Part shown: piece by piece, positions 1,794-54,054 of the stretch | How the letters are laid out: each line of letters starts with the position of its first letter | Numbering within the stretch: the stretch's first letter is position 1 | Assembly (NCBI GenBank): GCA_041664465.1 | Contig: JBAYKP010000001.1 | Location: 68,204-132,203 of the forward strand | Source of the DNA: Minisyncoccota bacterium | GTDB lineage: Bacteria > Patescibacteriota > Minisyncoccia > Phycocordibacterales > UBA9973 | Direction: 5' to 3' | DNA length: 64,000 bases | Notes under the pieces: model-generated | Told to the model about the DNA's origin: nothing | The model's input: the letters and a program-made list of their open reading frames with translations, nothing else | Database searches by the model: none | Translations under genes and position numbers: made by a program

Positions 1794-3578
1794 TTATATA
1801 AATTCAGCTTGATAACATTTCTCGCAATACACTATCTCCTTCCTGTCTTCACTTATTGCTGTTTCAAAATTATTCTGACATGGTTCACTCCCATGAGCAT
1901 GTTCTACTGTATTTCTGTATTCTTTATTCTCTGATTCTATACCACCACACATACATTTCCTAGTTTCTAATTTTAATGGATTTGTTTTCTTAAGCCTTTC
2001 ATAATGTCTACAATTAGGGCACAAATGAGGTAAAGCTATTTTCATAGAACGATATAAGATTAATTCATCAGGTAATATTTTGTATGCAGTTGTGCATTGC
2101 TGATTGCAATCTCCTCCATTATGCTCACATTCTATAACTTCATCTAAAATTGAATCTTCTACATTATCAATATGATCTGGTAAATCAACTGATTTCATTG
2201 TTATTGTGTAATCTCTTTCTGTAGAATCACTCCAAATGAAACCCTTCTCAAGAGCTTGATCTTTAGTTAAAGGAAACCATTGATGAGCCCATGATTCATT
2301 GTAGGTCCACATAGAATGCTCTTTGGGATAAAAATCTCCATATTTATAAACTCTACCCTCTTTGTCTATATAAGGCATATCATTCATGTGTTTTTTAATC
2401 CTTGGAATTAATTCTTCATATTCTTCCTTCGTATATTGCTTATTCAAAATACAATATTTTTTATGTCTTAATTTCGCACAACCAAAAAGATTTGTTCCTC
2501 CATAAACATTTTCGCAATATTCTGAATCAATAGTATTATTACTTGATCGTGTAAAAAAGGTATTTTGGCAACGTATAGCCCCTGTTGCTTCATATAAAAG
2601 CTCTGAAGTATCTCCCCCGAGAGTCATATCATAACTATCTTTTAATAATAAACCTCCATGAAAAATATACTTACAATTTTGAACCCCATGAGTCGCAGAA
2701 AAGCAATTCTTGCAACTTTTTGAATTTTGTATATCATCTCCTGAAACATCGATCGAATTAGAAATTAAGGCAAATTTTCTTGGTATTTTATAATACAGCT
2801 CAGCAAATTTTATTTTTGCTTTCTCAATAATAGAATAGCTTCCTAAATTATATTTTAATATTTCTTCTTCATAATCTTTTTTAGAATATTGTTTATTCCA
2901 AATACAATACTTTTGATTCCTCAAATTTATACAACCAAAACACTTAGAGCACCCAAGACAATTAAAAAGAAAAGAAGAATCTATACACTCATCGGAAAAA
3001 TAAGTAAATTTTGTATTATATAAATCACCTGAATTTAAAATTTCATAAACATGATCAGCATTTATTACAAAGTCTGCATCAAGAGAGTCTTTGGTAAATA
3101 TTGGGGTTAAACAATAATAACAATTAATACACTGCATGCCACTGAAGACAAAGGTGCAATTTTTACAACGAATAATTCCATTGCAATATTTGCAATCAGT
3201 TGAATTTTGAATATTAGTTGCCTGGCATGGCACAACTTTTCTCAATTCATCTAATTGCTCAAAAAATGGTTTAGAAAAATCATATTCTTTGCCATAAGAA
3301 AGTGGATTCCAGCTATCACTCCACCAACAATCATTACAAAAGACAACTACTTCTCTGGTTGGAGAAAACAAACTGATGGTATCTTTACCGCAGTTATCGC
3401 AAGAATCTTTATATAAAGTTCTTTCTGAGATATTATTTAACCTATTTATTAATCTACACTCTGGGCAGAAAGTTGGTGGTGGAACTTTAATTTTCTCATA
3501 AAATGAGAAATCATCAGGCTCAATGGTGAAATTAAGCTTGCAGTTCTGACAGGTTCTGTTTTCTGGTTTATGCTCCAT
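1794..3578 (-). CDS. cytoplasmic multi-CxxC (zinc-ribbon-rich) protein of unknown function with an internal duplication
   Basis: 594-aa ORF with more than 20 CxxC/CxxxC pairs. The module ...C..CFGC..L...KYCI(W/L)NKQY(S/T)K(K/E)(D/E)YEE... occurs twice. No signal peptide and no recognised catalytic motif. Confidence 0.5.
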   Translation of the reverse strand: MEHKPENRTCQNCKLNFTIEPDDFSFYEKIKVPPPTFCPECRLINRLNNISERTLYKDSCDNCGKDTISLFSPTREVVVFCNDCWWSDSWNPLSYGKEYDFSKPFFEQLDELRKVVPCQATNIQNSTDCKYCNGIIRCKNCTFVFSGMQCINCYYCLTPIFTKDSLDADFVINADHVYEILNSGDLYNTKFTYFSDECIDSSFLFNCLGCSKCFGCINLRNQKYCIWNKQYSKKDYEEEILKYNLGSYSIIEKAKIKFAELYYKIPRKFALISNSIDVSGDDIQNSKSCKNCFSATHGVQNCKYIFHGGLLLKDSYDMTLGGDTSELLYEATGAIRCQNTFFTRSSNNTIDSEYCENVYGGTNLFGCAKLRHKKYCILNKQYTKEEYEELIPRIKKHMNDMPYIDKEGRVYKYGDFYPKEHSMWTYNESWAHQWFPLTKDQALEKGFIWSDSTERDYTITMKSVDLPDHIDNVEDSILDEVIECEHNGGDCNQQCTTAYKILPDELILYRSMKIALPHLCPNCRHYERLKKTNPLKLETRKCMCGGIESENKEYRNTVEHAHGSEPCQNNFETAISEDRKEIVYCEKCYQAEFI

Positions 3579-6430: not shown

Positions 6431-7729
6431 TTATATAGGCAAATCTGAAGGTGGCTTTGCAATCTTGGATTCAATACGCTTGAAGCTTGGGGTCTCAGAA
6501 ACCATACCTGGGAAGTGATAAATAGTAGCTAATTCTTCAAGAGAAAGAACAAATATCTGAGATCTACCAGATGGGAAAAAGGCAGATATCAAGCTCGGAT
6601 ATTTTATAGAGTTCTGGATTGGAGGATGGAAGAATACTCGTAAACGATAGAAGTCGAGCATTCTCTTCTTGATCTTAGTCAGTGCGAGTCCTGTAGGGTC
6701 TGCCCAAGGTGCATCAAACTGAGTAGCATTTAAACGTTCAAGCTGGTTGGAATTGGGCTGAGCAAATTGGCGAAAAACAAGACGGCAAGACTTGCGAAGC
6801 TCATTGAACTTTTCAAGAGAATGCAGTCTCTTATCTGCAAATACTATAATTCTAATACCAACATCAAAATGTATCTGCCCAAGACATGCCGTCATCTGCT
6901 TGACGATAAGATCCAAGAATCCAGGAGCTCGAACTTCAAAAGTATCTATACCACCGAGACCCATACCTTTACCATATTTCGTAAAGGGCTCAAGCATATT
7001 TCTAATATATTCTTCGGCATAATCATAAAAGTTGAGATGCTTGTGAGTCAGAGGACCGTGATACATCTTGATATCTTGTCTGATAATTATCTGAATCCAC
7101 ATTTGCTGACCTTTTGGCAGAGAACCTAGATATTCAATAGTAGGAGTAAGCGGATCAACTTTGAACTCTTCTTTAATCCCACTTTTCATATCATCCATCT
7201 GTTTGTATGTCCTTATAGGCTGAACATCATCTTTTTCTTTGGCGAATTCAGCACCCCACATATTCCAATCTCCGTTTTTCGTGTATTGAGGAATATTCCA
7301 AACATAATCTTCAGCTTCCATAACTTTGGCTTGCGGATATTGAGCGTATATCTGAGTCTCTACCAAGTCTCTGATTCTAGATGGGGTACGAATATAAAAA
7401 TGTACTCGTCCATCAATAGAGACCATTTCAAGTGAAAACCAAAGCCACGGAGCACCTATCATATATTCTTCCCAGAATCCTTTCTTACTTCGATGATAAA
7501 AAGCATTCGAGAAAACGAGCTCCATCGCGGCTGGAGTCTTGATCACATCTCTTGGGACTTGAATTTCAAGAAGCACCCATTTAATACCAGCAATAAAACG
7601 CTCTTGTCGGTAGTGATGCCACAAATATACGGCTGCATACGCTAAAGGAATCGGCATCAAGTAACCGATGAAAACGATCAGCATTTGTAAAAGATTGAAA
7701 GTATGAGTATTAAGAAAGTCTTGTATCAT
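6431..7729 (-). CDS. conserved hypothetical protein, N-terminal membrane anchor, no recognisable catalytic motif
   Basis: 432 aa, with a TM segment near the N-terminus (LLQMLIVFIGYLMPIPLAYAAVYLW). No Walker A. Contains W-rich segments and ends ...SLEELATIYHFPG.... Confidence 0.4.
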   Translation of the reverse strand: MIQDFLNTHTFNLLQMLIVFIGYLMPIPLAYAAVYLWHHYRQERFIAGIKWVLLEIQVPRDVIKTPAAMELVFSNAFYHRSKKGFWEEYMIGAPWLWFSLEMVSIDGRVHFYIRTPSRIRDLVETQIYAQYPQAKVMEAEDYVWNIPQYTKNGDWNMWGAEFAKEKDDVQPIRTYKQMDDMKSGIKEEFKVDPLTPTIEYLGSLPKGQQMWIQIIIRQDIKMYHGPLTHKHLNFYDYAEEYIRNMLEPFTKYGKGMGLGGIDTFEVRAPGFLDLIVKQMTACLGQIHFDVGIRIIVFADKRLHSLEKFNELRKSCRLVFRQFAQPNSNQLERLNATQFDAPWADPTGLALTKIKKRMLDFYRLRVFFHPPIQNSIKYPSLISAFFPSGRSQIFVLSLEELATIYHFPGMVSETPSFKRIESKIAKPPSDLPI

Positions 7730-12729: not shown

Positions 12730-13431
12730 TTATATCACAAGAGCTATATGCTCCAAAATCATTTTGACCGATGCGCCGGGGATGCTTAGAAAACCTCGGC
12801 AATTTTTAAGTTCTTCTAGAATAAATTTCAAATCTTCATTATTCAGATCTTTCTTCCACTTTTCATACACTCTCCTCTCGATACCATTCACGAGCGAGAT
12901 AGCATAATACCGAAGCCCTCCACTATTCTCATTATCTTTAAATTCTTTTATTATTTCTGCCACTTTTTCGATTCTTTCTTTTGGATTCATTTTCACAAAC
13001 TCCCCACCTATTTTATTCTCAAAATTATTATCTCTTTTTAAATTCTTTATCAGATGCACTCGTGAAAGTATCGTCTCGGCAAGTAATGATGCATCAGGCA
13101 CAACAATGAAGAAGTGCGTATCGTCCATAGGCTCTTCTATTATTTTAAGCAGACTTTGCTCAGCTTCACGATTGATAAATTTGGCTCCAATAATGCAAAC
13201 TTTCTTCTTGCCATCTACCCCTTTATTCTTGTGCCAATCCTTAATATTGTGTCCATCTTCTATATTAAATGCATCATAGAGATTAAGCAATACATCTGGG
13301 CTTCTTTTATTTATATCACCTCGTTCTTCTAAATATATACGCAAAAGATAGACAATCTCTTCTGGATTACCCTCTACAACATAACTATGATACAAATTCT
13401 GTGGGAATAATTGACTAAAATCCATATACAC
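12730..13431 (-). CDS. holB: DNA polymerase III delta-prime subunit-like clamp-loader protein
   Basis: AEQSLLKIIEEP (box VII, AxNALLKxLEEP) and SRVHLI (SRC motif). It is short, like CPR HolB. Confidence 0.65.
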   Translation of the reverse strand: MYMDFSQLFPQNLYHSYVVEGNPEEIVYLLRIYLEERGDINKRSPDVLLNLYDAFNIEDGHNIKDWHKNKGVDGKKKVCIIGAKFINREAEQSLLKIIEEPMDDTHFFIVVPDASLLAETILSRVHLIKNLKRDNNFENKIGGEFVKMNPKERIEKVAEIIKEFKDNENSGGLRYYAISLVNGIERRVYEKWKKDLNNEDLKFILEELKNCRGFLSIPGASVKMILEHIALVI

Positions 13432-14552
13432 TATTGTACCTCAAATGGGAAATATTCGGAAAGCTCGCCTGAATAATAGAATTCATAAGAAAGACCTCCG
13501 AAAGTATAATCTCTATCACTAATAGTAATAGTGGAGCCTCCAACTTCTGGATTCTCTTTTGGTATTGATTTATTGAACCCTAAATTGAATAAAGTAGCGA
13601 GAACTTCTGGACGATCGTTGATAAGGAAGCCTGCCGTCTCCCACTGATGCATTATTTCCTTTAAAAATACAGCCGTATACATATAAGAATAATAATGATT
13701 CTTATCATCTGCTAATCTATTCATCAATTCTGTATCAGGATTGGCATCTCCATAATTAAAAATATTTTCATAATTAGCCCCTAGATAAAATGGACTTTGG
13801 CTATCTTTCAAATTACTTTCAATAATTTTAGCCGTTTCAAATTTAACACCTGCTACTCCATAAGAAAATTTCGTACCATTACCGAGAACTTTCAATGGTT
13901 CAAAATATTTCTTGAATGATTCACGATTGGCCGTAAAGAATCTAAATTGCTCCGAGATAACAGTCGAGACTATGATTCTAGAAGGTACACCCGAGTCCTT
14001 ACTTGCTTGCAGTATCACATCTTTATCTTTCACCAAAGCATCTCTTAAGGTCATCCACTCAGGAGAAGACATCCAAGAGAAAATACTCTGAGCCGAAGGA
14101 TTGTCCCCTAAAGAAAATATATTCTGTCCAATGCTATCACAACTAGCCACTTTATCTTTTAAGAATGAATTATTATTCTCGGTGACAAGTAGAATTGCAT
14201 TTATCATTTTCTCGGCTACGATTTGCGACTTGGTTGTGATGTATGCATCTAGTATCCTCTCGCCATTCTCTGGCAAGATAGAAGTAATCGTCATAACTTT
14301 GCATTCTACTCTAGGGTCTAATTTGTTGAAATTGGTGGCTGTCGTAGTTTTTTTAAAAATTGGCAAAATCGCCTCCTTTTTACTGGCATTATTGAAAAAG
14401 GCATTACGAGAATCAATACTACCTTTCACATCTGTCAGGTGAAGTCGCATAGCTACAAAAACACCAGAAAAAACTATTCCCAAAAGAGCAAAGCCACACA
14501 CAATAACAATTAATATTATTTTTAATGTCTTTTTATTTTTTATAAATTTCAT
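13431..14552 (-). CDS. hypothetical membrane-anchored extracytoplasmic protein
   Basis: An N-terminal TM segment (ILIVIVCGFALLGIVFSGVFVA), then a ~340-aa domain with no recognised motifs. It lies between holB and mreB. Confidence 0.4.
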   Translation of the reverse strand: MKFIKNKKTLKIILIVIVCGFALLGIVFSGVFVAMRLHLTDVKGSIDSRNAFFNNASKKEAILPIFKKTTTATNFNKLDPRVECKVMTITSILPENGERILDAYITTKSQIVAEKMINAILLVTENNNSFLKDKVASCDSIGQNIFSLGDNPSAQSIFSWMSSPEWMTLRDALVKDKDVILQASKDSGVPSRIIVSTVISEQFRFFTANRESFKKYFEPLKVLGNGTKFSYGVAGVKFETAKIIESNLKDSQSPFYLGANYENIFNYGDANPDTELMNRLADDKNHYYSYMYTAVFLKEIMHQWETAGFLINDRPEVLATLFNLGFNKSIPKENPEVGGSTITISDRDYTFGGLSYEFYYSGELSEYFPFEVQ

Positions 14553-25422: not shown

Positions 25423-25533
25423 ATGGATGATACAAAATGCCCAGTATGTGGCAATATGCCATGTACTTGTGAAGCAAAGGAGAAATGTCCTGTATGTGGA
25501 AATGAGCCTTGTACTTGTGCCCCAAAGGAATAA
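25423..25533 (+). CDS. 36-aa 8-cysteine mini-protein (two CPVCGNxPCTC repeats; metallothionein- or zinc-knuckle-like)
   Basis: ATG...TAA encodes MDDTKCPVCGNMPCTCEAKEKCPVCGNEPCTCAPKE. It is followed within 27 nt by a perfect terminator hairpin. Too short for the ORF track. Confidence 0.45.
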   Translation: MDDTKCPVCGNMPCTCEAKEKCPVCGNEPCTCAPKE

Positions 25534-25559
25534 ACTAGTGTTTTAGAAATACTCAATCA

Positions 25560-25597
25560 AAAGCACCGCGACGTAGTCGCGGTGCTTTTGTGTTTTG
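25560..25597. terminator. bidirectional rho-independent terminator shared by the mini-protein gene (+) and the two-TM operon (-)
   Basis: aaagcaccgcgac-gta-gtcgcggtgcttttgtgtttt. 10-bp GC-rich stem with T runs on both strands. Confidence 0.7.
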
Positions 25598-25635: not shown

Positions 25636-25956
25636 TTACTGTAAATTTCCAACTGTATAGTCGCCGTTTTGAATCTTGATACCTTTCGTGCCCAATGTAG
25701 TAAGTAAGATATTCATAATTCCAAAGACAGCCACCATAATAAACATTCCGACTACTCCCCAAAGCATATGTTGCTTGCTAGTCTTCCTTATCTCTTCATT
25801 ATCCGGAGACAATAAATATTTCGCAAGTCCATATATAAAGTATATGATAGCCAAAGCAAATAGGAAAGTAATAAGAGGATTGATGATAACCCTATTGATA
25901 CTTGCCATAAGACTGACAACATTTGCTTCTGCAACTGGAATGATTTGAAAATTCAT
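25636..25956 (-). CDS. secreted two-TM hairpin protein, paralogue D (VirB2/TrbC-pilin-like module)
   Basis: Start taken at MNFQIIP. The module is hydrophobic helix (PLITFLFALAIIYFIYG), LSPDNEEIRK loop, then W-containing second helix (MLWGVVGMFIMVAVFGI). It is shared with ORFs 25964-28434. Confidence 0.55.
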   Translation of the reverse strand: MNFQIIPVAEANVVSLMASINRVIINPLITFLFALAIIYFIYGLAKYLLSPDNEEIRKTSKQHMLWGVVGMFIMVAVFGIMNILLTTLGTKGIKIQNGDYTVGNLQ

Positions 25957-25963
25957 AATAATA

Positions 25964-26338
25964 TTAACAAGGCAATAATTGACCAGAAGGAGTGTAAGTA
26001 GGAGTACAAGGAACGATCTGTCTACCTGATGCATTACCTACTCCGAAAGTATTCATAACGATACCTATAATTCCCCAGAAAGCCACAATAACAAAAAGAC
26101 CGATAAGCCCATTGATGATTTTCGCACGGCCACCTTTCTTAGCTTCTTCATCAGAAGACATAATGAACTGAACTATACCCCAGACGAAGTAGATAACTGC
26201 GACAGTAATCAACAAAGGAAGAACATAAGCTAAAAGTTGATTTATTCTAATAAGAATGGTATCAAAAGTTGTTGATTCAGCAAAAACAACAAATGGTGAG
26301 AAAGCCAAAACAGAACCTAATGCAATAATTTTTTTCAT
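25964..26338 (-). CDS. secreted two-TM hairpin protein, paralogue C (signal peptide + VirB2/TrbC-like module; Cys/Pro-rich tail)
   Basis: Signal peptide MKKIIALGSVLAFSPFVVFA, then helix LPLLITVAVIYFVWG, SSDEEAKK loop, helix LIGLFVIVAFWGIIGIV. The C-terminus ends VPCTPTYTPSGQLLPC. Confidence 0.55.
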   Translation of the reverse strand: MKKIIALGSVLAFSPFVVFAESTTFDTILIRINQLLAYVLPLLITVAVIYFVWGIVQFIMSSDEEAKKGGRAKIINGLIGLFVIVAFWGIIGIVMNTFGVGNASGRQIVPCTPTYTPSGQLLPC

Positions 26339-26453
26339 AAAAAACTTTAATAATAAATTATAATAATTTGTTAAATCCTACCGACCGTAGGAGATAAAAC
26401 TAAACGTACAATACTATATGTATATTATAACAACAATGTTTAATATACACAAT

Positions 26454-26810
26454 CTACTGAATCTTTTCTGGAAGACTTGGAAGAGCCGACTTGACCCCAA
26501 ATGTACCAGAGAAAATTCCAACCAATCCCCAAATACTGACCATCACAAATAAAGTGATAATACCCCAGAACATGAAACTTTTCCCATCTTTACGCTTCTC
26601 TTCATTGTCAGGATTCAAGAAATATTTAATAATCCCGTAGACAAAGCCAACGACAGCCAAAGCCACCAATAAAGGGACAACGGCATTCATCAATGTACAA
26701 GTGATAAAGTTGATAATATCCGTCAGACTCTTCATCTCTCCCACTCCCGGACAACTACTAACTGCTCCGTTCAAATTTGACCCTGCTGCATATGCAATCA
26801 ATGTATTCAT
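26454..26810 (-). CDS. two-TM hairpin protein, paralogue B (VirB2/TrbC-like module)
   Basis: VPLLVALAVVGFVYGIIKYFLNPDNEEKRKDGKSFMFWGIITLFVMVSIWG. No obvious cleavable signal peptide in the annotated ORF. Confidence 0.5.
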   Translation of the reverse strand: MNTLIAYAAGSNLNGAVSSCPGVGEMKSLTDIINFITCTLMNAVVPLLVALAVVGFVYGIIKYFLNPDNEEKRKDGKSFMFWGIITLFVMVSIWGLVGIFSGTFGVKSALPSLPEKIQ

Positions 26811-26869
26811 TTTATAAATTTATATTATACTTTTAATTCTTCGACCTATTTAATAAATCAAGTAATAAA

Positions 26870-27328
26870 TTAAGCACCATTGGTAATATCTTTGACTGTC
26901 GATCCGATCGCTTGGGCTATAACATAGGCTCCTAAGAGTAATGCTCCACCGATAACTGTATAAAGGAGCGTCCTGTGCGCTATCTCAAGCTCACTTGGAT
27001 TCCCTTGAGCCTTCACATAGAGGAAGCCAGCATAAATAATAGCCAGAGCAAGGATAGGTATACCCACAACGAGGACGATATTGATAATGGCTTCTATGAA
27101 TTTCGGAATCGTATCTAGATTCTCTCCTAGCGGATTCTTGATCCCCGCATCAACTTTGACTCCTGCAGGACAAGTAGTAGCTGTTGTTTCTACCCCATTA
27201 CATTTAATAGCAAACGCCACAGGACTCAATAGTATAAAACCTAAAACTAAAATAGGTCCTAATTTTAATATATTCCCCAAAATACTATACTTTTTTCTTT
27301 TTAAATTTTTCATACTTTGTCTCGCCAT
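26870..27328 (-). CDS. secreted two-TM hairpin protein, paralogue A (signal peptide + VirB2/TrbC-like module)
   Basis: A basic N-terminus plus signal peptide ...ILVLGFILLSPVAFA, then two hydrophobic helices separated by KAQGNPSELE. Confidence 0.55.
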   Translation of the reverse strand: MARQSMKNLKRKKYSILGNILKLGPILVLGFILLSPVAFAIKCNGVETTATTCPAGVKVDAGIKNPLGENLDTIPKFIEAIINIVLVVGIPILALAIIYAGFLYVKAQGNPSELEIAHRTLLYTVIGGALLLGAYVIAQAIGSTVKDITNGA

Positions 27329-27366
27329 AGCTATTGCGTCGGCGGATTAAAATTTGTTAATAATAA

Positions 27367-28434
27367 TTACTTTTGTAATGATGATTTGTCTAAGAATGTA
27401 TTGATTTCTGCATTTTTATCAAGCAAAGTTGTCATAATAGTATTCACGACAAGCCAAGCTGCGAGAGCCACGATATATCCGATAACTACATTGAAGAGTA
27501 TATGCCTTGCTTTCTCTGTCTGGCCTGCACTCCCACCAGCCGTCAAGAATAAATAGGCAGTATACATTATGATAAGAGCTACCAATGGAGTCGCAATAGT
27601 AAATAATACGAATTTAATAAGATTATTTAGCAATAACATAAAATAATTGAAATCACAGGGATTCTTGTATTGACCAGTCACTTTGTCTATCTCGCCAGTA
27701 TTACAAGTGGGGACAATTTTACTGCCATTATCTTGGATAACGGGAGTAGGAGTATTGATAGGAGTGACAGGAGCATTTTTATCTATCAATGTATCGAATC
27801 CAATTTGTTTATGAGTAACATTACCGTCTAAATTTAAATCTAGTGATGCGTCATAAGAGTGCCCTGCAGTTAAACCCTCTACTTTAAATTGAAATGTCCC
27901 ATCAGAAGCTGAATTAATAGTCCATACTTTAAATGGAGCTTGCGCCGTCCTATCATACACTGATAATTGATAAGCTTGACTTGTCATCAGACCAGAAGCT
28001 TTCAATAAAACAGAGGTCATAGTGACAGAAGTAATATCGTATTGAAATACAATATACTCTGCGGTAATGATTCTAAAAATGTCAGAGCTGACGGTACTCA
28101 AATTACTAAAATTCATCACTGTAATCTTGCCATCTGTAGCACCAACGGGCACTTTAACTTTGATTTCAGTAGCCGTACAACTTTCTACAATAGTTCGGAC
28201 CGTATTAAATGTTACATAATCTAGACGCTGGAAATTCTCACCCTTAATAGTAATGACGTCACCTATCTTTGCAGAAAGCGGGCTAATGCTTGTAATCACG
28301 GGAGTAACTTTGGCATTTAGAAGTGAAGAATCATCACATTTCACTGCAGCAAAAACCTTATTCACATTTATAAAACTACTTATAAAAATAATGACCAGTA
28401 TTAAACTAAATATAATTCCAATATTTTTTTTCAT
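27367..28434 (-). CDS. secreted IPT/TIG-domain protein with a C-terminal two-TM pilin-like module (fusion paralogue)
   Basis: Signal peptide, then ITSISPLSAKIGDVITIKGENF...TEIKVKVPVGATDGKITV (IPT/TIG-like Ig fold), a beta-rich middle, then the C-terminal FVLFTIATPLVALIIMYTAYLFL..GQTEKARHILFNVVIGYIVALAAWLVV module shared with the four downstream paralogues. Confidence 0.55.
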   Translation of the reverse strand: MKKNIGIIFSLILVIIFISSFINVNKVFAAVKCDDSSLLNAKVTPVITSISPLSAKIGDVITIKGENFQRLDYVTFNTVRTIVESCTATEIKVKVPVGATDGKITVMNFSNLSTVSSDIFRIITAEYIVFQYDITSVTMTSVLLKASGLMTSQAYQLSVYDRTAQAPFKVWTINSASDGTFQFKVEGLTAGHSYDASLDLNLDGNVTHKQIGFDTLIDKNAPVTPINTPTPVIQDNGSKIVPTCNTGEIDKVTGQYKNPCDFNYFMLLLNNLIKFVLFTIATPLVALIIMYTAYLFLTAGGSAGQTEKARHILFNVVIGYIVALAAWLVVNTIMTTLLDKNAEINTFLDKSSLQK

Positions 28435-28437
28435 AAA

Positions 28438-29751
28438 TTATTTTGTATTATAATTTCTAAGAATAAGATCCAGCTGGCTGGAAGCTTTATTGATAGCATC
28501 TGTTACTGAAAGCTTGTTGGACAATGAATTCTCTATCAATTCTTTAAAAATAGAATCGGATTGTTCTTTGTCGGGATCAAGCCATGAACGAGCGATAATA
28601 GCAGAGTCAAAGAAAGTGACCAGATATGGGTCTTTGGGCATATCTCTAAGCAAAGACCTCGTCGCTGTAGGTATTGAAGTGCTAATGCCTAACTCTTTAA
28701 GGAAATCAGGGGCAGTTATAAGGGATGAGACTCCTAGGGCAGAGGCTAAATTCATGGACTTTTTATTGGCGACTAACGTATAGATATTGCCATACGTGCG
28801 TTTGATACTGGTCCCCTTTGTCTGAGGGATAGTAGTAACATCAAAACTCAAATTTGGATTGACGGATTGTATTTTAAATAATTCACTGGCATATCCTATA
28901 TAAAAAGCAAGCTTTCCACTTGAAAACATTTCAAAAGAATTTGGCATTGAGCGATTCCAAGAATAAGATTCATTGGAAGGATTTGAGAATTCTAAGAAGA
29001 AATTTACAATCTGTTCAAATGGGGCAACCCCACTAGGCAGAGTATCTTTAATCGTTAGAGCATATCCGGTACTTGTTCGCGCAACTATAGAATTATCGCT
29101 TTCAAGTAAAAGCATTGAGAGAATATCTTTGGAGTGATTCACATTATCATACTGACCGAAGGCTATCATACTTTGTGTGATAGTGCCATCACTTTTTTTC
29201 TTTATCAATTTAGAACCTAAATTAAATAATTCATCCCAAGAAGTCGGAGGATAAAGAATCCCCTCATTGGAAAGCATATTTTTGTTGTAATATAAAACTA
29301 ATGGATCTACTAGTAAAGGAGACCCTATCACTCCATCATTCGCGAGCAAGATATCAGCTCCATCAATATATGAAGTTCGGAAAGATTTCTCGGATAAGCT
29401 AGCGTATGGAATTTTGTAAATAAAATTACTGTTCTTTAGAATCATATCGGGAGTCAGGATGAATAAATCAGGAGCAGAGTCTTTTGCTATTGCTTCTATA
29501 AGGTTCTGTTCATAGCTATCACTCTTCTGTTCTTTATAAGTCACAGTAAAGGGGGCATTGGAGCCAGCGATACTTTCAACTAGTGATGAGACTTGCGCAC
29601 TAGGCAAAGTCCCCCAAATAACAATCTTACCAGAAATCGCATTGGTCCCGCTACTACTCCCACCAATTTTAAGAATTCCAGAGAATATCAAAACTCCAAA
29701 AACAAAGAAGGCTAAAAATATTGCAACCAAGATTGTTTGAAAATTATTCAT
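28438..29751 (-). CDS. ABC transporter substrate-binding protein (family 1, sugar-type), membrane-anchored
   Basis: An N-terminal TM segment, then KIVIWGTLP...LFILTPDMI...PLLVDPLVLYYNKNML, typical of extracellular solute-binding protein family 1. Confidence 0.55.
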   Translation of the reverse strand: MNNFQTILVAIFLAFFVFGVLIFSGILKIGGSSSGTNAISGKIVIWGTLPSAQVSSLVESIAGSNAPFTVTYKEQKSDSYEQNLIEAIAKDSAPDLFILTPDMILKNSNFIYKIPYASLSEKSFRTSYIDGADILLANDGVIGSPLLVDPLVLYYNKNMLSNEGILYPPTSWDELFNLGSKLIKKKSDGTITQSMIAFGQYDNVNHSKDILSMLLLESDNSIVARTSTGYALTIKDTLPSGVAPFEQIVNFFLEFSNPSNESYSWNRSMPNSFEMFSSGKLAFYIGYASELFKIQSVNPNLSFDVTTIPQTKGTSIKRTYGNIYTLVANKKSMNLASALGVSSLITAPDFLKELGISTSIPTATRSLLRDMPKDPYLVTFFDSAIIARSWLDPDKEQSDSIFKELIENSLSNKLSVTDAINKASSQLDLILRNYNTK

Positions 29752-29752
29752 A

Positions 29753-30295
29753 CTAATATGTGAAAATTATACCATAATGATGCTCACTTGTGGTAATTTC
29801 TTCTGCAAATTTAAAACCTCTCTTAAGGAATAAATCTATCGCCTCCCTTTTTTCTATTACTCTTTCCCCTGATGGACCCATGCTATTAAAAGATGCTAAC
29901 CACTCTATGAAAAGAATTTTGCCATCATTTTTTAAAATTCTTTTGGCTTCATCTATAAGCCCGAGCTTGTCCTCAGCTTGGAATAAGACATTGGCAATAA
30001 TGACAGCATCCATAGAATGATCGGCTATCTTCGTGCCACCCTTTTTCTCTATATCGCCCCAGATACATTCTACATTTAAAACACCGTTTTCTTTTATTTC
30101 ATTTTCAAGTTTCTTGACTAGATTCTTCTGGACTTCTATGGCATAGACGTGACCTGTATGCCCGACGTGCCTGCCAGCAGAAATAGCATAAGCCCCAGTC
30201 CCAGCTCCAAAGTCTGCGACTCGCATACCTTCTCGTAATCCTAATTGAGCAACATTTTTTTCTGGATTAGAAAACATAATTATATTATAGCACAT
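29753..30295 (-). CDS. class I SAM-dependent methyltransferase (Methyltransf_11/UbiE-like)
   Basis: VADFGAGTGAYAI (motif I), DAVIIANVL and GKILFIEW motifs. Likely start is MFSNPEK at 30277. Confidence 0.6.
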   Translation of the reverse strand: MCYNIIMFSNPEKNVAQLGLREGMRVADFGAGTGAYAISAGRHVGHTGHVYAIEVQKNLVKKLENEIKENGVLNVECIWGDIEKKGGTKIADHSMDAVIIANVLFQAEDKLGLIDEAKRILKNDGKILFIEWLASFNSMGPSGERVIEKREAIDLFLKRGFKFAEEITTSEHHYGIIFTY

Positions 30296-32750: not shown

Positions 32751-33086
32751 TTATTGATTAGGATATTCTACTGGTATTAAATCTATCTTCTTCTCTAATT
32801 TTGTATTAACTGGCTGGCTGGTAACTTCTTTTTTATTTGTAAATGGAGAATTTGCGACACTTGCTCCTATATTCTTAAATGTATCCGATAATGAATTCTT
32901 GAAAAGTTGGAATGGCTTGATGTCTTTGTTCGTTTGCTCTGCTACTTTTCCATTCCCAAAACGAGTTCCTAAATTATAAATCCAAATAAAAGAAACGAAA
33001 GACATACAAAGTATAAGAACAGCGACAAATATTAATTTGCGAGTCTCTTCACTTTTTGATTGTAACTTTTTTATATATGCTCTCAT
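32751..33086 (-). CDS. hypothetical single-TM protein
   Basis: 111 aa with a TM segment [20 protein letters not shown]. No motifs. Confidence 0.35.
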
Positions 33087-33760: not shown

Positions 33761-34372
33761 CTATTTTCCTACGCAATAATTGTAGATAGAATAATTATAA
33801 TCTGCATGAAGATAATTATTGGGACTAAAAGGATCTATTACATCAATGTGCCCCAAATTATTTTTATCAGAAGTATTTTCAAGCCAAGTGCAAAGTAAGT
33901 AATGAGTTGCATTATAACTACCTAAAGTTCCATTTGATCTATAGTGATAAAGTCTATTTACAGATTGTCCAGGAGGATTACCGCTCCAAGGGAACATTCC
34001 CGATGCAACATTTACCGGGTCACGAGGAACATAAGACATACTACCACTATTAACAAGTGGCAAAAATAAATTGTTCCAAGAATTTAAACCAGTATCCCAA
34101 GCTGGATTTGTATTTGCATAAGTTCCTGATATTGCAGAAGTCGTGCCAGTTGCTGGATATCCACCATGAGTATCATAATATAATTCTAGGGCGATACTCA
34201 TTTGACGAAAGTCTGACTTTCTTCTAGAATCATTAGCTTTTATTTTTGCCTCATGTAAGAAAGACAACACAACTGTTGATAAAATTCCAATAATTGCAAT
34301 TACAACTAAAAGTTCAATTAAAGTAAACCCTTTATTTGATGAAATTAAATTTTTCTGCAAAAATTTAAACAT
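33761..34372 (-). CDS. type IV pilin (prepilin with N-terminal methylation motif)
   Basis: KGFTLIELLVVIAIIGILSTVV is the class III signal / N-methylation site (G|FTLIEL). Confidence 0.8.
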   Translation of the reverse strand: MFKFLQKNLISSNKGFTLIELLVVIAIIGILSTVVLSFLHEAKIKANDSRRKSDFRQMSIALELYYDTHGGYPATGTTSAISGTYANTNPAWDTGLNSWNNLFLPLVNSGSMSYVPRDPVNVASGMFPWSGNPPGQSVNRLYHYRSNGTLGSYNATHYLLCTWLENTSDKNNLGHIDVIDPFSPNNYLHADYNYSIYNYCVGK

Positions 34373-38955: not shown

Positions 38956-39636
38956 CTAGGTTTGAGGTTCTAGGGTTTCAAAATAATTTTCAACAAATTC
39001 CTTAAAAGATTGTTTATTATGAAAATAATCTGGAAAATTATCTTTATTTAAAATACTATTTTCTATTCTATCATCTCCTGTATAATCTTGATAACTAGAA
39101 TATTTATATGATTCTAAAAAGTTCTTCATATCTACTGATGACTTATTCAAATTATCTTCCCACTCAGGAAATTCTATCTCTAATGAATTAAGATGAATAT
39201 ATGCAAATAATTGTCTTAAATAATTATCATCATTCCCTACTAATTTAGCTTTAAATAATCCTCCAAATAATGCTCCTTTTCTTTGATATTTTATATTAAA
39301 AAACATTGAATATCCTACTCCTAATTTTCTCATAAATTTAGTTATACCACCATCAACATCTTGTCTAACTAATATGTGAAAGTGATTGTTCATCAAACAC
39401 CACGCACCAATAGAGATAATACTCTTTTCTTTTTTGATTTTTAAAATATCATAGTATTTTTTATTTTGATTATTTACAAGATTATCAATCCGAAAAGATT
39501 CTTCAGAGTTTGCGAGATAAAGAAGCATAATAAATCTTTCATAATCTCCTTTGATTTTAAAAATTACTCTCTTATCAATACCCCTATTATAAATATGGTA
39601 ATATTCTCCTGTTATAAATGGATCTTTCCTTAACAT
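38956..39636 (-). CDS. IS200/IS605-family Y1 (HUH) transposase, REP-associated tyrosine transposase (RAYT)-like
   Basis: GEYYHIYNRG..., LMNNHFHILV (HUH motif) and ...QLFAYIHLNSL (candidate catalytic Tyr). It is flanked on both sides by the same 25-bp REP. Confidence 0.6.
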   Translation of the reverse strand: MLRKDPFITGEYYHIYNRGIDKRVIFKIKGDYERFIMLLYLANSEESFRIDNLVNNQNKKYYDILKIKKEKSIISIGAWCLMNNHFHILVRQDVDGGITKFMRKLGVGYSMFFNIKYQRKGALFGGLFKAKLVGNDDNYLRQLFAYIHLNSLEIEFPEWEDNLNKSSVDMKNFLESYKYSSYQDYTGDDRIENSILNKDNFPDYFHNKQSFKEFVENYFETLEPQT

Positions 39637-49746: not shown

Positions 49747-50256
49747 TTGATATCATATGATATAATAAAAATTATGGGAAAGATAAATATCTACATTGAT
49801 GGAAATAATTTATATCGCTCGGCCAAAGAATTAGGATTTGAAATTGATTATAAAAAGTTCCGTGTATGGTTATCTCAAAAATATAATACAAAAAACATAT
49901 TTCTTTTTATTGGGTATTTAGAAAATAGAAAAGATTTTTATAATTATCTTAAAAATTGTGGTTTTGATTTAATATTTAAAGAAGCAGTTCTTCATGAAGG
50001 TAATATTAAGGGAAATTGCGATGCCGAACTTGTATTAAAATCGGTTGATGATTATCATCTAAAGAATTTTGATAAATTTATACTAATTTCTAATGATGGA
50101 GATTTCGGTTGTCTTATTGAATTCTTAATAAATAAAAATTGTTTTGACATTATATTATCTCCTGATAGAAAGAAGTGTTCTATTTTATTGAGAAATAAAA
50201 CAAATAAGATTTTATATTTAAACGAAATTTATAAAAAGTTCTCAAAAAAGAAATAA
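49747..50256 (+). CDS. NYN-domain (PIN-like) putative ribonuclease
   Basis: INIYIDGNNLY, GNCDAEL, ILISNDGDF: the acidic residues of the LabA/NYN fold. Confidence 0.6.
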   Translation: MISYDIIKIMGKINIYIDGNNLYRSAKELGFEIDYKKFRVWLSQKYNTKNIFLFIGYLENRKDFYNYLKNCGFDLIFKEAVLHEGNIKGNCDAELVLKSVDDYHLKNFDKFILISNDGDFGCLIEFLINKNCFDIILSPDRKKCSILLRNKTNKILYLNEIYKKFSKKK

Positions 50257-50414
50257 TATAGTCTATATAAAAAGAAAAAGCTCCCGGTATGGGCGCACCC
50301 ATACAGGGATCTCTTTCATAATGATATCAGTATTATATCATATTGCCGAAAGTATGCAAGTATTTTATTTAGGTTCGAACTTCTACCAAAGCAGGGAAAA
50401 TAGATCTTAAATTA

Positions 50415-50438
50415 CCTAACAAGAACCGTTCTTGCTAT
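50415..50438. repeat. degenerate REP copy (cctaacaagaac-c-gttcttgctat)
   Basis: Two mismatches relative to the 38912 REP. It is intergenic, next to the R-M/MazG block. Confidence 0.5.
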
Positions 50439-50444
50439 ATTTAA

Positions 50445-50840
50445 TTAGTTTTGATTATTATTTTCTAACTTTTTTATCTTTTTGAATTTATACCACCCAA
50501 TAATTACTGGTAAGACAAAAGTTAAAATATAATAAATATAAACATCGATTTTATAATAACCAGTTACTTTAAGTACTTTAATCATGAAAATATAATCCAA
50601 AGCCACTGCCATAATAGCCCAAATAACCCCTAATCCGATATAACACCCAAATTCTTCTCTTTTAATTTTCTTAAGCAACACCCAAAGAGTAAACGCTATT
50701 CCGAAAGGCATAATGCTCCAGCCTATAAATTCTTTTGGCACAAAAGCAAAAAATACAAATCCTAAAACATAGCCAAAAAGCCAAACAATAAATCCCCAAA
50801 AAACAGTATTAAGAAAAATTTTCCCTTTATTTGTTTCCAT
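50445..50840 (-). CDS. hypothetical four-TM membrane protein
   Basis: Hydrophobic profile only. Confidence 0.35.
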   Translation of the reverse strand: METNKGKIFLNTVFWGFIVWLFGYVLGFVFFAFVPKEFIGWSIMPFGIAFTLWVLLKKIKREEFGCYIGLGVIWAIMAVALDYIFMIKVLKVTGYYKIDVYIYYILTFVLPVIIGWYKFKKIKKLENNNQN

Positions 50841-50843
50841 AAA

Positions 50844-51092
50844 TTAATATCTATATTTATAAGGCTTCACCGTTCCTTTCTTCCCTGAATAAGGATTATA
50901 ATTCCCTTTTGTAGAATAGTTATCTAACTTGGTTTTATTTGGAGAAGTTCGGTAAGAAGGTGCTACATATTTCATAGTGGAAGGTTTAAAATAACCTTTT
51001 ACTTTAACAGTCTTGGCTTCTACAGATGAGACAGATACAAACAACCCTAATAATAGAAACCCTAGAATACTTAAAACTGCAAGTTTTTTCAT
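50844..51092 (-). CDS. small secreted K/Y-rich protein
   Basis: Signal peptide MKKLAVLSILGFLLLGLFVSVSSVEA, then a Lys/Tyr-rich 55-aa tail. Confidence 0.35.
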   Translation of the reverse strand: MKKLAVLSILGFLLLGLFVSVSSVEAKTVKVKGYFKPSTMKYVAPSYRTSPNKTKLDNYSTKGNYNPYSGKKGTVKPYKYRY

Positions 51093-51152
51093 ACAATATT
51101 TGAAGTGATTATTAATATCCTAATCATATGCCTATTTATGGATAAATCAAGG

Positions 51153-51866
51153 CTAAATACTTTTTATTGAATGAATAACCTTATCCATAAAATTATCATA
51201 GTCATTTAATATAATTCCATCTCCAAAAGTCACGAGTGATTTTTTTGATAATTTTAATTCAATACTATTTTTAATACTTAAATAATATTTCTTATATTGA
51301 GATTTTTTTATTATTTTATCTTTTATTAGATCCGGAAATTTAATCATAAATATTAATGTTTTTGTGGGCGTATGGAAAAATACATCTTCATCGTCTTGTG
51401 ATAATTTAAAATACTTATGGATATTATTGTCCGTAATTTTTTCCCACTTTGTGATCATACCCTTATTGTTATAATAAGGTAATTCTTCTGGTAAAACTAA
51501 AATCTGATAATATTTTTTCTTATTAGCTCTTATATTTGCTGTTTCTCCTAACATATTTTCAAAATAATTATTTGAATTTTGAGAATAATTATTCATGACA
51601 AATTTAACAGCAACTCCGGCAAGATCTTTTTTGTCTTTAAAAATAGTAATATCTACTGTCTTGTCCATATATCTACCTTCCATTTTAGCTTCTTTCCCCT
51701 TCCCCAAACCAAGGGAACTGACAGTGTATTTATTCCCAAGTCTTTTTTCTAAATCTTTCGCAATTGCCCCATGAAGTATTTTTAACTTTTCATTACTTCG
51801 TGAATGTGTTTGTAAAAATTTTACAAATGATTGACTTACTATTTTCAAAAATTTTTGATTATTCAT
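51153..51866 (-). CDS. putative type II restriction endonuclease (partner of the adjacent methyltransferase)
   Basis: It lies immediately downstream of, and is co-oriented with, the N6A MTase, 23 nt apart. The candidate PD-(D/E)xK-like segment MDKTVDITIFKDKK gives no family-level match. Confidence 0.35.
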   Translation of the reverse strand: MNNQKFLKIVSQSFVKFLQTHSRSNEKLKILHGAIAKDLEKRLGNKYTVSSLGLGKGKEAKMEGRYMDKTVDITIFKDKKDLAGVAVKFVMNNYSQNSNNYFENMLGETANIRANKKKYYQILVLPEELPYYNNKGMITKWEKITDNNIHKYFKLSQDDEDVFFHTPTKTLIFMIKFPDLIKDKIIKKSQYKKYYLSIKNSIELKLSKKSLVTFGDGIILNDYDNFMDKVIHSIKSI

Positions 51867-51889
51867 TTTTATGATTATTATATTAATTA

Positions 51890-53356
51890 TTAAAATAAAG
51901 ATGGCTGAACTTTATAAAATTGAGGATGAACAAAATCTTTCATGAAACTTTTAGCATATGATTTATATCCACCACGATAACTTTTGGAAATTGAATTTAT
52001 ATACTCTTCCATTGAATTTGAATTTAACACTTCGCAAAGGGCATATAGATCAACATCTTTATTTTTTGGTTTTATACAATAACCAGAATAAAAACTTGTT
52101 TTTTCGTCTTCTATTACAAAAAAGTGAGGAGTGAGATTCATTGTACTAGTTATTATTTTTTTACCAAAACCAGTTTTTAAACTTTGGTTTCTTCCAAAAG
52201 AATAAAATTCTTCATAATTTTTACCACCACCCTTGTCTCTTTTTTCTAAAATATCACGATTATATAAAAAATATTTATATGCTTCTGGATATTTATTTAT
52301 AAAAATATTTTTAGGAATTATTCTTTCATTTTTATACGGAAAAATCAAAAAAAGATTCTGATTTTTCCCTTTATAAGTAGATGCTTTAATAATTGGAACA
52401 CACAAATTTCTCTCTATTTTAAAATTATCTTTATAAAAATATATTTTATCTATTTTTTCAGGAGAAAATATATAAACATCATCTTTTAATGTAGCAATTC
52501 CATAATGGATGTCCGCTATTTCTTGAAGTGTTGAATATTTTTTATTTAATTTATCTATTTTTTTAGAATATTCTTCACTTAAAAATTGCCATGGTTTTAA
52601 CTTATCTTCTATATTTTTCAATATCTTTTTATAAACAATATCATTAAAATTATTTTTATAGTTCTCTGTATATAAAAAATTATGGGTATTTTCTTTATTT
52701 AAAAATGTTATGGCGGTGTAAGTTGTTGCGTCTTTAAATACCTGAAAGTGATCAAAATTAATGATTTTTGTTAAATGTGGATAAATTAAATTTCTTAAAT
52801 TTCTCCCAGCACTAGAGTGAAAATGAGAGTTAGGTGTAATAAAAGAAAGTTTCCCGTTTTCTGTTAATAAATTCAGAGACTGCTCAAAAAAACAAAAATA
52901 TAAATCAATGGAGCCATTAGATGCTGATATAAACTTCTTTTGTATTTCATCTCTTTTTTCATTAAGATTTTGTATTCTCACATATGGAGGATTACCTATT
53001 ATAAAATTAAATTTCTCTTTAAAATCATGAAAACAAAAATCATTAATAATTGAGTTATATTGGGTAATTTCTTCATTAGATAATTCTTGTAAATTTTGTT
53101 TTGTTTTGTTTATATATTCTTCTGAAATGTCAATAAAATAAAGATTGTTTTCAATTACATCTTTTATTGATTTTCCAGATATTTTAGAAAATTTCTTAAC
53201 TATTGGAATAGAAAAAGCACCTTCTCCACATCCAGAATCTAATATTTTTTCTGATCCTGTTATTTTTGTATCTTTAAATACTTCATCAATCATAAAATCA
53301 ACTATCCATTCCGGAGTAAAAACAACGCCATTTTCTTTTTTAGATTTAACATTCAT
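51890..53356 (-). CDS. N6-adenine DNA methyltransferase (gamma-class; TaqI/Eco57I-like)
   Basis: GVVFTPEWIVDFM (motif X), LDSGCGEGAF (motif I FxGxG) and IIGNPPY (motif IV) in gamma-class order. A C-terminal target-recognition region. Confidence 0.8.
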   Translation of the reverse strand: MNVKSKKENGVVFTPEWIVDFMIDEVFKDTKITGSEKILDSGCGEGAFSIPIVKKFSKISGKSIKDVIENNLYFIDISEEYINKTKQNLQELSNEEITQYNSIINDFCFHDFKEKFNFIIGNPPYVRIQNLNEKRDEIQKKFISASNGSIDLYFCFFEQSLNLLTENGKLSFITPNSHFHSSAGRNLRNLIYPHLTKIINFDHFQVFKDATTYTAITFLNKENTHNFLYTENYKNNFNDIVYKKILKNIEDKLKPWQFLSEEYSKKIDKLNKKYSTLQEIADIHYGIATLKDDVYIFSPEKIDKIYFYKDNFKIERNLCVPIIKASTYKGKNQNLFLIFPYKNERIIPKNIFINKYPEAYKYFLYNRDILEKRDKGGGKNYEEFYSFGRNQSLKTGFGKKIITSTMNLTPHFFVIEDEKTSFYSGYCIKPKNKDVDLYALCEVLNSNSMEEYINSISKSYRGGYKSYAKSFMKDFVHPQFYKVQPSLF

Positions 53357-53398
53357 ATTAATATATTATATCATTTTATACATACAAACTATAATTTT

Positions 53399-53785
53399 TT
53401 ATAGTTTATTATATTTCGTATGCTTTCCTTTGGCTTTCTTTACTGGGTATTTTTCTTCGTTTTTCTTCATTTTTTTATCTAATGCGTCTATAATATCTAT
53501 CTTCAAATCATGGCTCATAAGTAAAACCCAATAGAAGACGTCTGCCAGCTCTTCCCCAATATGCTCTTTGTGTGACTTTATATATTCTTCAATTTCTTCT
53601 TTTGATTTCCATTGAAAATGCTCCAGAACTTCAGAAGCCTCAAGTGAAAGAGAAATTGCTAAGTCTTTTGCATTATGAAATTGCTTCCATTTTCTAGCAT
53701 TTCGGAAAGCTAGTATCTTCTGTATTGATTCACTCAAATCTCCTTTCATAATTTGAAGTATAGCTCTATTTCCCTTTTGAGACAA
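53399..53785 (-). CDS. MazG-like nucleotide pyrophosphohydrolase
   Basis: FRNARKWKQFHNAKDLAISLSLEASEVLEHFQW and EELADVFYWVL. This is the EExxE/D metal-binding helix pattern of the MazG/NTP-PPase family. Confidence 0.65.
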   Translation of the reverse strand: MSQKGNRAILQIMKGDLSESIQKILAFRNARKWKQFHNAKDLAISLSLEASEVLEHFQWKSKEEIEEYIKSHKEHIGEELADVFYWVLLMSHDLKIDIIDALDKKMKKNEEKYPVKKAKGKHTKYNKL

Positions 53786-53882
53786 TATGGGGGATTTTTG
53801 GGATAAGTATTAAAGTAATATACCTTTTGCTTTTTTAGTCTATTTTTGCTACTATATTCTAGTCTATTATTAATAGACGTAT

Positions 53883-53954
53883 TCCGTGGTAGCTCAGCGG
53901 TAGAGCGGTCGCCTGTTAAGCGATTGGTCGTAGGTTCGATCCCTACCCACGGAG
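53883..53954 (+). tRNA. tRNA-Asn (anticodon GTT)
   Basis: TCCGTGGTAGCTCAGCGGTAGAGCGGTCGCCTGTTAAGCGATTGGTCGTAGGTTCGATCCCTACCCACGGAG. Cloverleaf with anticodon loop CTGTTAA. The antisense ORF 53746-53961 (VGIEPTT) is a tRNA artefact. Confidence 0.85.
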
Positions 53955-54054
53955 CAGACAAATTAACTCATTATTTTTAATGAGTTTGTTGTAGATTGAC
54001 AGCTTTGCTATTTAAGGGTAATGTGAAGAAAAATAACTTAAAAATGAAATAATC

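Follow-up and report, generated by a model that had tools for sequence, protein, structure and literature searches.

A conserved five-gene array of predicted VirB2-like pilins on the core chromosome of a Paceibacteria bacterium

Introduction

Patescibacteria, the bacteria of the candidate phyla radiation (CPR), carry tandem arrays of genes for VirB2-like pilins. Wang et al. (2023) reported an essential series of subunits, predicted to be pilins, within the locus encoding a type IV secretion system (T4SS) in Southlakia epibionticum ML1, the one species tested, in which the T4SS and pilin arrays were essential for epibiotic growth (PMC10633639); a later review counts six VirB2-like pilins there (PMC12857230). 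Quinonero-Coronel et al. (2025) applied PF18895 and PF04956 to 3,035 genomes, found VirB2-like pilins in 1,948 assemblies, with a pilin gene near virB4 in 1135 of the 1948, and described 441 patescibacterial arrays with ~25% mutual identity, for which they proposed a function in host-range versatility (PMC12102498). An array was defined in that study as 2-11 pilin genes (by PF18895, PF04956 or CONJScan profiles) of low identity, in tandem or with one non-pilin gene between them. According to a 2025 review, the patescibacterial T4SSs are the only monoderm ones with potential pili, and reviews of the Southlakia system lean to pilus formation, without direct evidence (PMC12857230). In this study, we describe an array of five genes (g1-g5) on the minus strand at positions 25636-28434 of a 64,000-nt stretch of DNA from a Minisyncoccota bacterium (contig JBAYKP010000001.1), hereafter the window. 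Its five tandem genes, 17-44% identical, fall within the published definition. VirB2-like pilin arrays in Patescibacteria are thus already known, and this locus is another one.

The array resembles those arrays in its PF18895/PF04956 relationship, its tandem paralogues of ~25% identity, its place on a CPR chromosome with no relaxase nearby, and its monoderm host. Unlike the Southlakia array, it lies outside a T4SS locus, behind gyrA, a methyltransferase gene and a solute-binding protein (SBP) gene. Classical conjugative pilins, such as Agrobacterium VirB2 (T-pilus, PDB 8exh), RP4 TrbC and R388 TrwL (PDB 8s6h), share with it a two-helix hairpin of ~70 residues that comes after a signal peptide, but they are encoded by one gene rather than five paralogues, and here the host is monoderm and no virB genes are adjacent. 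Mbov_0395, from an integrative and conjugative element (ICE) of Mycoplasma (family NF045849), is likewise a small protein with two transmembrane (TM) segments from a monoderm T4SS; unlike the chromosomal five-gene set, its family is ICE-borne and single-copy, and we know of no ectodomain fusions in it. In Bartonella (Trw) and Anaplasma, several divergent virB2/trwL copies also lie side by side. Those copies are lineage-specific recent amplifications that are thought to give surface variation, whereas copy number, order and orthology of the present array are fixed over deep divergence. Finally, PilB of Streptococcus sanguinis joins a pilin module to an adhesive globular domain (PMC8179133), as g1 does, and as g2 and g5 do in other species; its pilin fold and assembly machine are unrelated, and g1-g5 lack its N-methylation motif.

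Results and discussion

Five paralogues of the VirB2/TrbC pilin superfamily

The array consists of five co-oriented open reading frames (ORFs), all on the minus strand: g1 (27367-28434, 355 aa), g2 (26870-27328, 152 aa), g3 (26454-26810, 118 aa), g4 (25964-26338, 124 aa) and g5 (25636-25956, 106 aa). This agrees in coordinates and orientation with a sequence-only reading of the window, which had described five consecutive genes for secreted, conjugative-pilin-like proteins. The g5 protein is given from the ATG at 25956 (N-terminus MNFQIIPVAEAN...), a start that is more likely than the one at 26034; the gene call in a close relative also gives 106 aa, and the orthologues carry a median of 9 residues ahead of the module. 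The longest g5 ORF (25636-26034), with a signal-like leader ending in AEA, was rejected for its overlap of 71 nt with g4 and for the absence of the leader from the orthologues. A longer N-terminus of g3 was ruled out because an in-frame stop lies two codons upstream of its ATG; the protein begins with MNTLIAYAA and has no classical signal peptide.

By hydropathy, all five proteins have two C-terminal TM segments with a charged loop between them, and only g1, g2 and g4 have an N-terminal signal-like segment, which bears out the three signal peptides of the sequence-only reading. The loop motifs quoted there were also present (NPDNEE in g3, SPDNEE in g5, SSDEEAKK in g4 and KAQGNPSELE in g2). Of the shared module that it had proposed, the two helices and the loop held for every member; the Trp, which lies within or shortly ahead of the second helix, was found in four of the five proteins and is missing from g2. 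The TM segments of g2 are at residues 23-41, 80-98 and 120-138, with a Cys pair in its short ectodomain, and those of g4 are at residues 4-22, 35-53 and 77-95, with a Cys pair at the C-terminus.

BLASTP comparison of the modules linked g3, g4 and g5 at 31-44% identity (E 4e-16 to 7e-25) and g1 with g2 at 30% identity (E 2e-11). Pairs across these groups mostly gave E values of 1e-3 to 2e-7, and the weaker ones (g1-g3, g2-g3 and g2-g4) 0.013 to 0.43. A family hidden Markov model (HMM) of the module recovered exactly g1-g5 among the window ORFs of at least 40 aa. By these sequence comparisons the paralogy of g1-g5 is genuine and not caused by chance hydrophobic composition, and an origin as chance ORFs or composition artefact was rejected by homologue counts and synteny.

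The family PF18895 (T4SS_pilin, gathering cut-off 26.6 bits) was matched by all five proteins, above the cut-off by g3 (44.7 bits), g4 (38.1 bits) and g2 (27.8 bits) and below it by g1 (24.6 bits) and g5 (21.8 bits). The last two were counted in the family by transitivity, because an HMM built from orthologues matched both (g1, E 4e-22; g5, E 2e-32). At E <= 1e-3, PF18895 matched 150 of 150 g1/g2 orthologues and 141 of 150 g3-g5 orthologues. The two-helix hairpin of this family was also found, by hydropathy and in the AlphaFold2 (AF2) models of g3 and g1. PF04956 (TrbC/VirB2, gathering cut-off 27.9 bits) was matched only by g2, whose score of 26.0 bits (E 1.1e-5) misses the cut-off by 1.9 bits; the other four proteins were unmatched. 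Among orthologues (E <= 1e-3), it matched 67 of 150 from g1/g2 (best E 6.3e-9) and 1 of 150 from g3-g5. By profile, the relation to TrbC/VirB2 is thus one of superfamily rather than of family membership, and g2 is the paralogue nearest the classical proteins, from which the array differs further in an identity of ~12%. In short, the proposed TrbC/VirB2 pilin type survived as PF18895, with three members above the cut-off, and not as PF04956; the profile similarity on which the proposal had been made to depend was found with both families. We therefore regard as largely correct the assignment, from sequence profiles, of g1-g5 as paralogues of the VirB2/TrbC pilin superfamily, PF18895.

The top NCBIfam match of all five proteins was NF045849 (Mbov_0395 pilin-like conjugal transfer protein), at window scores of 10.2-36.2 bits, all under its equivalog cut-off of 40 bits. 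It was matched by 143 of 150 g3-g5 and 100 of 150 g1/g2 orthologues (243/300, best E 5e-11), and a few orthologues matched a pLS20 conjugation membrane protein. At these scores NF045849 is a related family of which g1-g5 are not members. Given the consistency of this match, VirB2-like proteins may belong by origin to monoderm-type T4SSs; the literature raises instead a borrowing from diderm systems. A relation to the Mycoplasma ICE protein is hard to square with a published statement by which mating pair formation (MPF) systems of type MPF-FATA lack VirB2 homologues (PMC12102498). A type IV pilin identity was rejected, the prepilin motif N_methyl (PF07963) having no Pfam match in any of g1-g5.

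The search with g3 gave 125 homologues. Among the matches listed, 119 of 120 were annotated with PF18895; the names given were Candidatus Paceibacterota or Nomurabacteria, and one protein was called 'pilin'. By these relatives the organism is a CPR bacterium, the case that the sequence-only reading had allowed for.

Conservation of the set across Paceibacteria

Paceibacteria are the largest CPR class. A scan with the g3 family, limited to one genome per species (GTDB), gave 80 loci with 39-77% identity to g3, all from Paceibacteria-type metagenome-assembled genomes (MAGs), and their ORFs were assigned by phmmer against the window proteins. The order g1-g2-g3-g4-g5 was kept in 67 of the 80 species-level loci, and 7 of the 13 deviating loci were contig ends. 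The SBP gene stood immediately before g1-g5 in 65 loci, and the full series from GyrA through the methyltransferase and SBP genes to g5 was present in 59. Module identity was 46-51% between orthologues and 17-39% between paralogues of the same genome, indicating that the duplications predate species divergence. On this sequence evidence, the five genes are an ancient, fixed 1:1 set and not a fast-varying array.

Sizes were constant for g3 and g4 (g4 orthologues, 100-146 aa). Lengths ranged from 109 to 702 aa for g1, from 58 to 926 aa for g2 and from 74 to 774 aa for g5, with N-terminal extensions of up to 611 (g1) and 836 (g2) residues and C-terminal extensions of up to 649 residues in g5, where 21 of 79 orthologues had an extension of more than 100 aa. 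Variation between species is confined to these g1/g2 N-terminal and g5 C-terminal extensions, and those that Pfam recognised were TIG, fn3 or InlB-B-repeat domains. Because some paralogues carry such large terminal domains, head-to-tail cyclisation of the full-length protein would be excluded.

In the literature searched, we found no report of a Paceibacteria-wide five-member set behind gyrA, methyltransferase and SBP genes, nor of its position-specific architecture or its relationship to the Mycoplasma ICE family. The available sections of PMC10633639, PMC12857230 and PMC12102498 make no mention of fixed 1:1 orthology with position-specific extensions.

Predicted structures and topology

AF2 modelled g3 as a helical hairpin (helices 29-65 and 70-103) with a mean predicted local distance difference test (pLDDT) score of 71.5. 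The g1 model (pLDDT 78) had a signal helix, two beta domains (46-122, 129-214) and two further helices (262-298, 303-337), so ordered that two well-predicted immunoglobulin (Ig)-like beta-sandwiches are followed by a Pro/Thr linker that is disordered, then by a Cys-bridged beta-hairpin and last by a helical hairpin of the g3 type. The first beta-sandwich is an IPT/TIG domain (Pfam TIG, E 1.2e-8), and an NCBI protein of the same sequence as g1 carries the name 'IPT/TIG domain-containing protein [Candidatus Paceibacterota bacterium]'. The Foldseek matches of the g1 ectodomain were tandem Ig/FN3/IPT ectodomains of a generic kind, among them surface glycan-binding proteins of Bacteroides.

Foldseek with the hairpin fold gave no match below E 1, and a g3-family profile run against PDB sequences brought up designed or unrelated helical proteins (E > 0.03) and no pilin. 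The structure prediction that had been suggested as a check yielded a single-chain helical hairpin, but comparison of these models cannot tell the fold of VirB2 from any helical hairpin. For this reason the VirB2 relationship rests on the sequence profiles.

Signal-like segments recurred by position among the orthologues (g1, 60/74; g2, 69/87; g4, 58/75; g3, ~38%; g5, 4/79). Cysteines in the segments predicted to lie outside were mostly even in number (g1, 64 even vs 8 odd; g4, 57 vs 3), and the loops were nearly Cys-free, with ~4 Lys/Arg each. Furthermore, extensions occurred solely at those termini which, by the VirB2 topology, would lie outside.

Predicted internal promoter and conserved leader hairpin of g4

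The g3-g4 junction was always long (median 118 nt, minimum 47 nt), whereas the other junctions had medians of 6-25 nt. In the window, this spacer contains an extended -10 promoter-like box, TGTTATAAT (26424-26432, minus strand), with TTGTGT 17 nt upstream at 26447-26452 and a transcription start predicted ~7 nt past 26424. The string TGNTANNNT was present in 65 of 74 orthologous spacers, against a chance expectation of ~0.1-0.2 per spacer (estimated from base composition), and TATAAT in 58 of 74. About 30 nt downstream of the -10 box, in the predicted 5' leader of g4, lies a hairpin (26376-26392, minus strand; TCCTAC-GGTCG-GTAGGA, loop GGTCG), followed by a AAATTATTATAA box. It is the sole such hairpin of the window outside a tRNA, and it had no Rfam match. 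A covariance model, R1 (window positions 26356-26398, 56.5 bits), also matched 31 orthologous loci, always at the same site and nowhere else in 1.3 Mb. Covariation was modest: 77.5% of cells were paired vs 72.7% in shuffles, and 13 double-change cells were counted vs 7.6 in shuffles, a number that 10 of 500 shuffles reached. We regard the hairpin as a conserved element whose RNA structure is unproven. Judged from these sequence features, an internal promoter and a conserved leader could raise the expression of g4-g5. A similar string, 'TTATTAAATAGGTCG', was also seen upstream of g3.

Relation to type IV secretion genes

The sequence-only reading had stated that no VirB4, VirD4, VirB6 or relaxase is encoded in the window. 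None of these families was matched by the 37 other window ORFs scanned, a set that includes all ORFs of at least 230 aa and leaves out about a dozen of 107-195 aa, and no T4SS gene was found up to 10 kb from the array in three annotated relatives (loci L002, L003 and L004). The tie to a T4SS is therefore one of family alone. T4SS ATPases elsewhere in the genome had also been named as decisive for the proposal. In Table S1 of PMC12102498, VirB4 is 'Yes' in nearly all Nomurabacteria rows shown. Of three array-bearing genomes, Nomurabacteria GW2011_GWE2_34_25 (L049) and RIFCSPLOWO2_02_FULL_42_17 (L055) are listed with VirB4; the third, the draft MAG Greene1014_15 (L073), is marked 'No'. Since virB4 of Paceibacteria is placed near dnaA/dnaN in the same paper, the remoteness of the array from virB4 is consistent with the published site.

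Proposed division of labour among the five proteins and alternative readings

From the family, fold, signal peptides and gene order described above, we infer a mechanism that extends to insertion topology, VirB4 extraction, polymerisation and a major/minor split. Sec/YidC would insert each protein in the cytoplasmic membrane so that its two termini face outwards and its charged loop inwards, signal peptidase I would trim g1, g2 and g4, and the paired cysteines of the outside segments would form disulfides. A T4SS of the monoderm type (VirB4 with its partners), encoded elsewhere on the chromosome, would then extract the pilins from the membrane and build one heteromeric surface filament or short conduit for host-cell contact. 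In such a structure g3 and g4, of constant size, would be the bulk subunits, with g4 boosted by its own extended -10 promoter, and g1, g2 and g5, with their species-variable Ig-like or other extensions, would be low-copy adhesive or tip subunits. We assign a probability of roughly 0.6 to this reading, in which Sec-inserted hairpin pilins are assembled by a distant chromosomal T4SS into a heteromeric filament or conduit with division of labour. With five paralogues retained 1:1 since before species divergence, their roles are most likely distinct and non-redundant, and do not lie in antigenic or host-range variation.

Several points weigh against this reading. To our knowledge, known monoderm T4SSs form no pilus, and we know of no pilus for the Mycoplasma ICE Mbov_0395 protein, whose family is the nearest in NCBIfam. 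The scores of g1 and g5 lie below the PF18895 cut-off. The major/minor split derives from size constancy and a predicted promoter. T4SS genes were found neither among the scanned window ORFs nor near the array in the three relatives, and Greene1014_15 has the array and is listed without VirB4 (Table S1 of PMC12102498). Pilus formation by g1-g5 is unproven.

A more specific form of the proposal, which we hold only tentatively, is that the five proteins are obligate, non-interchangeable subunits of one VirB2-type surface filament or feeding conduit of a monoderm, with g3/g4 as the shaft, g5 as an adaptor and g1/g2 as species-specific Ig-like tip adhesins, the ratio being set by the g4 promoter and leader hairpin and the T4SS lying far off near oriC. 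If a single heteropolymeric filament of this kind exists, it would be a conjugative-type pilus with minor and major pilins, an arrangement of which type IV and sortase pili are the only examples known so far, and it would be a class-wide core feature of host attachment in Paceibacteria.

The proteins could instead stay in the membrane, as small subunits of an envelope complex such as a monoderm-type T4SS, or form a short wall stub, with the Ig-like extensions as anchored adhesins and no extended pilus. The top NCBIfam relative, the few pLS20 matches, the near absence of TrbC matches among g3-g5 orthologues (1/150), the plain hairpin fold and the lack of linkage to virB4 all fit this possibility; for both the Mycoplasma ICE and pLS20, which are monoderm systems, we know of no pilus. 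Nevertheless, the proteins belong to a pilin superfamily and g1/g2 are linked to TrbC, five conserved paralogues with signal peptides exceed the needs of a simple anchor, and the Southlakia reviews lean, as noted, to a pilus. On balance we consider a purely membrane-resident role unlikely.

Much less probable is a variable array of interchangeable copies of one major pilin that serves antigenic variation or host-range switching, in the manner of the trwL and virB2 copies of Bartonella and Anaplasma, as was also suggested for Patescibacteria arrays in PMC12102498. The paralogues are divergent (17-44% identical) and the ectodomain lengths of g1, g2 and g5 range widely between species; to this extent the variable surface structure proposed by the sequence-only reading was borne out. 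The expansion itself was not of that kind: the five-member set is fixed in copy number and order, with 1:1 orthologues in 67 of 80 loci that are closer to each other than to paralogues of the same genome, the presence or absence of a signal peptide is kept per position, and few duplications and no signs of gene conversion were seen. An apparatus independent of a T4SS, for example a nutrient-capture or uptake structure made with the co-transcribed SBP and methyltransferase, is the least probable reading, for although the methyltransferase gene, SBP gene and g1 are nearly contiguous (median gaps -1 and 2 nt) and stand together in 59-65 of 80 loci, and no ABC permease or ATPase family occurs among the scanned window ORFs, the whole neighbourhood including gyrA is equally syntenic and the pilin family is otherwise linked to T4SSs (near virB4 in 1135/1948 assemblies, PMC12102498).

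Thus, the pilin set of Paceibacteria is fixed at five paralogues, sits at a core chromosomal site and has position-specific features, which argues for a heteromeric, divided-labour structure and against antigenic variation. This offers candidates for proteomics, imaging and binders, with g3/g4 as presumptive bulk subunits and the Ig-bearing g1 as a putative adhesin.

Neighbouring genes and other features of the window

The window is core chromosome, with genes for GyrA, FtsZ, FtsA, MreB, DnaE, PriA, HisRS and signal peptidase I as well as tRNAs. The gene immediately upstream of g1, 3 nt away in the window and a median of 2 nt away across loci, encodes a membrane-anchored SBP-like protein (28438-29751, minus strand; SBP_bac_1, E 3.6e-14) whose top PDB matches were distant sugar-type SBPs. 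Between it and gyrA is a gene for a class I S-adenosylmethionine (SAM) methyltransferase (29753-30295, minus strand; matches to Methyltransf_31/11/25), at a median gap of -1 nt from the SBP gene. No ABC permease or ATPase family was matched in any scanned window ORF. As functional partners of the pilins, the SBP and the methyltransferase are no more than candidates; their adjacency says little because the neighbourhood, including gyrA and a metallo-beta-lactamase (MBL)-fold gene, is equally syntenic and the genomes are compact. A 111-aa ORF without a Pfam match lies between the MBL-fold gene and gyrA (32751-33086, minus strand), a position kept in most of the 80 loci.

Downstream of the array, 45 nt past the g5 stop, is a GC-rich palindrome of 15 bp (25558-25590, both strands). 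It was listed on the plus strand in the terminator scan, and on the minus strand a trimmed stem is followed by TTTTGATT; it is likely a bidirectional terminator that closes the array. A 36-aa Cys-rich ORF, MDDTKCPVCGNMPCTCEAKEKCPVCGNEPCTCAPKE (25423-25533, plus strand), with two CPVCGNxPCTC repeats, is oriented convergently to g5, and the same palindrome marks its end. It may encode a small peptide of zinc-ribbon or metal-binding type.

The canonical PilA-like pilin that the sequence-only reading had placed apart from the array, at 33761, was recovered as an ORF at 33761-34372 with the N_methyl motif (PF07963). In loci L002, L003 and L086, a transposase gene stands between the S1 gene and the MBL-fold gene, where the window has the PilA-like gene; it is similar to an IS200-like Y1 transposase gene found in the window at 38956-39636 (minus strand). 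The stretch 50001-54000 is low in GC (0.26 vs about 0.36), contains, besides several ORFs without Pfam match, an Eco57I/MmeI-like DNA methylase-restriction gene (51890-53356), and adjoins tRNA-Asn (53883-53955); it is probably an acquired island. Three further minus-strand ORFs, at 1794-3578 (594 aa), 6431-7729 (432 aa) and 13431-14552 (373 aa), had no Pfam match or only a faint zinc-finger match.

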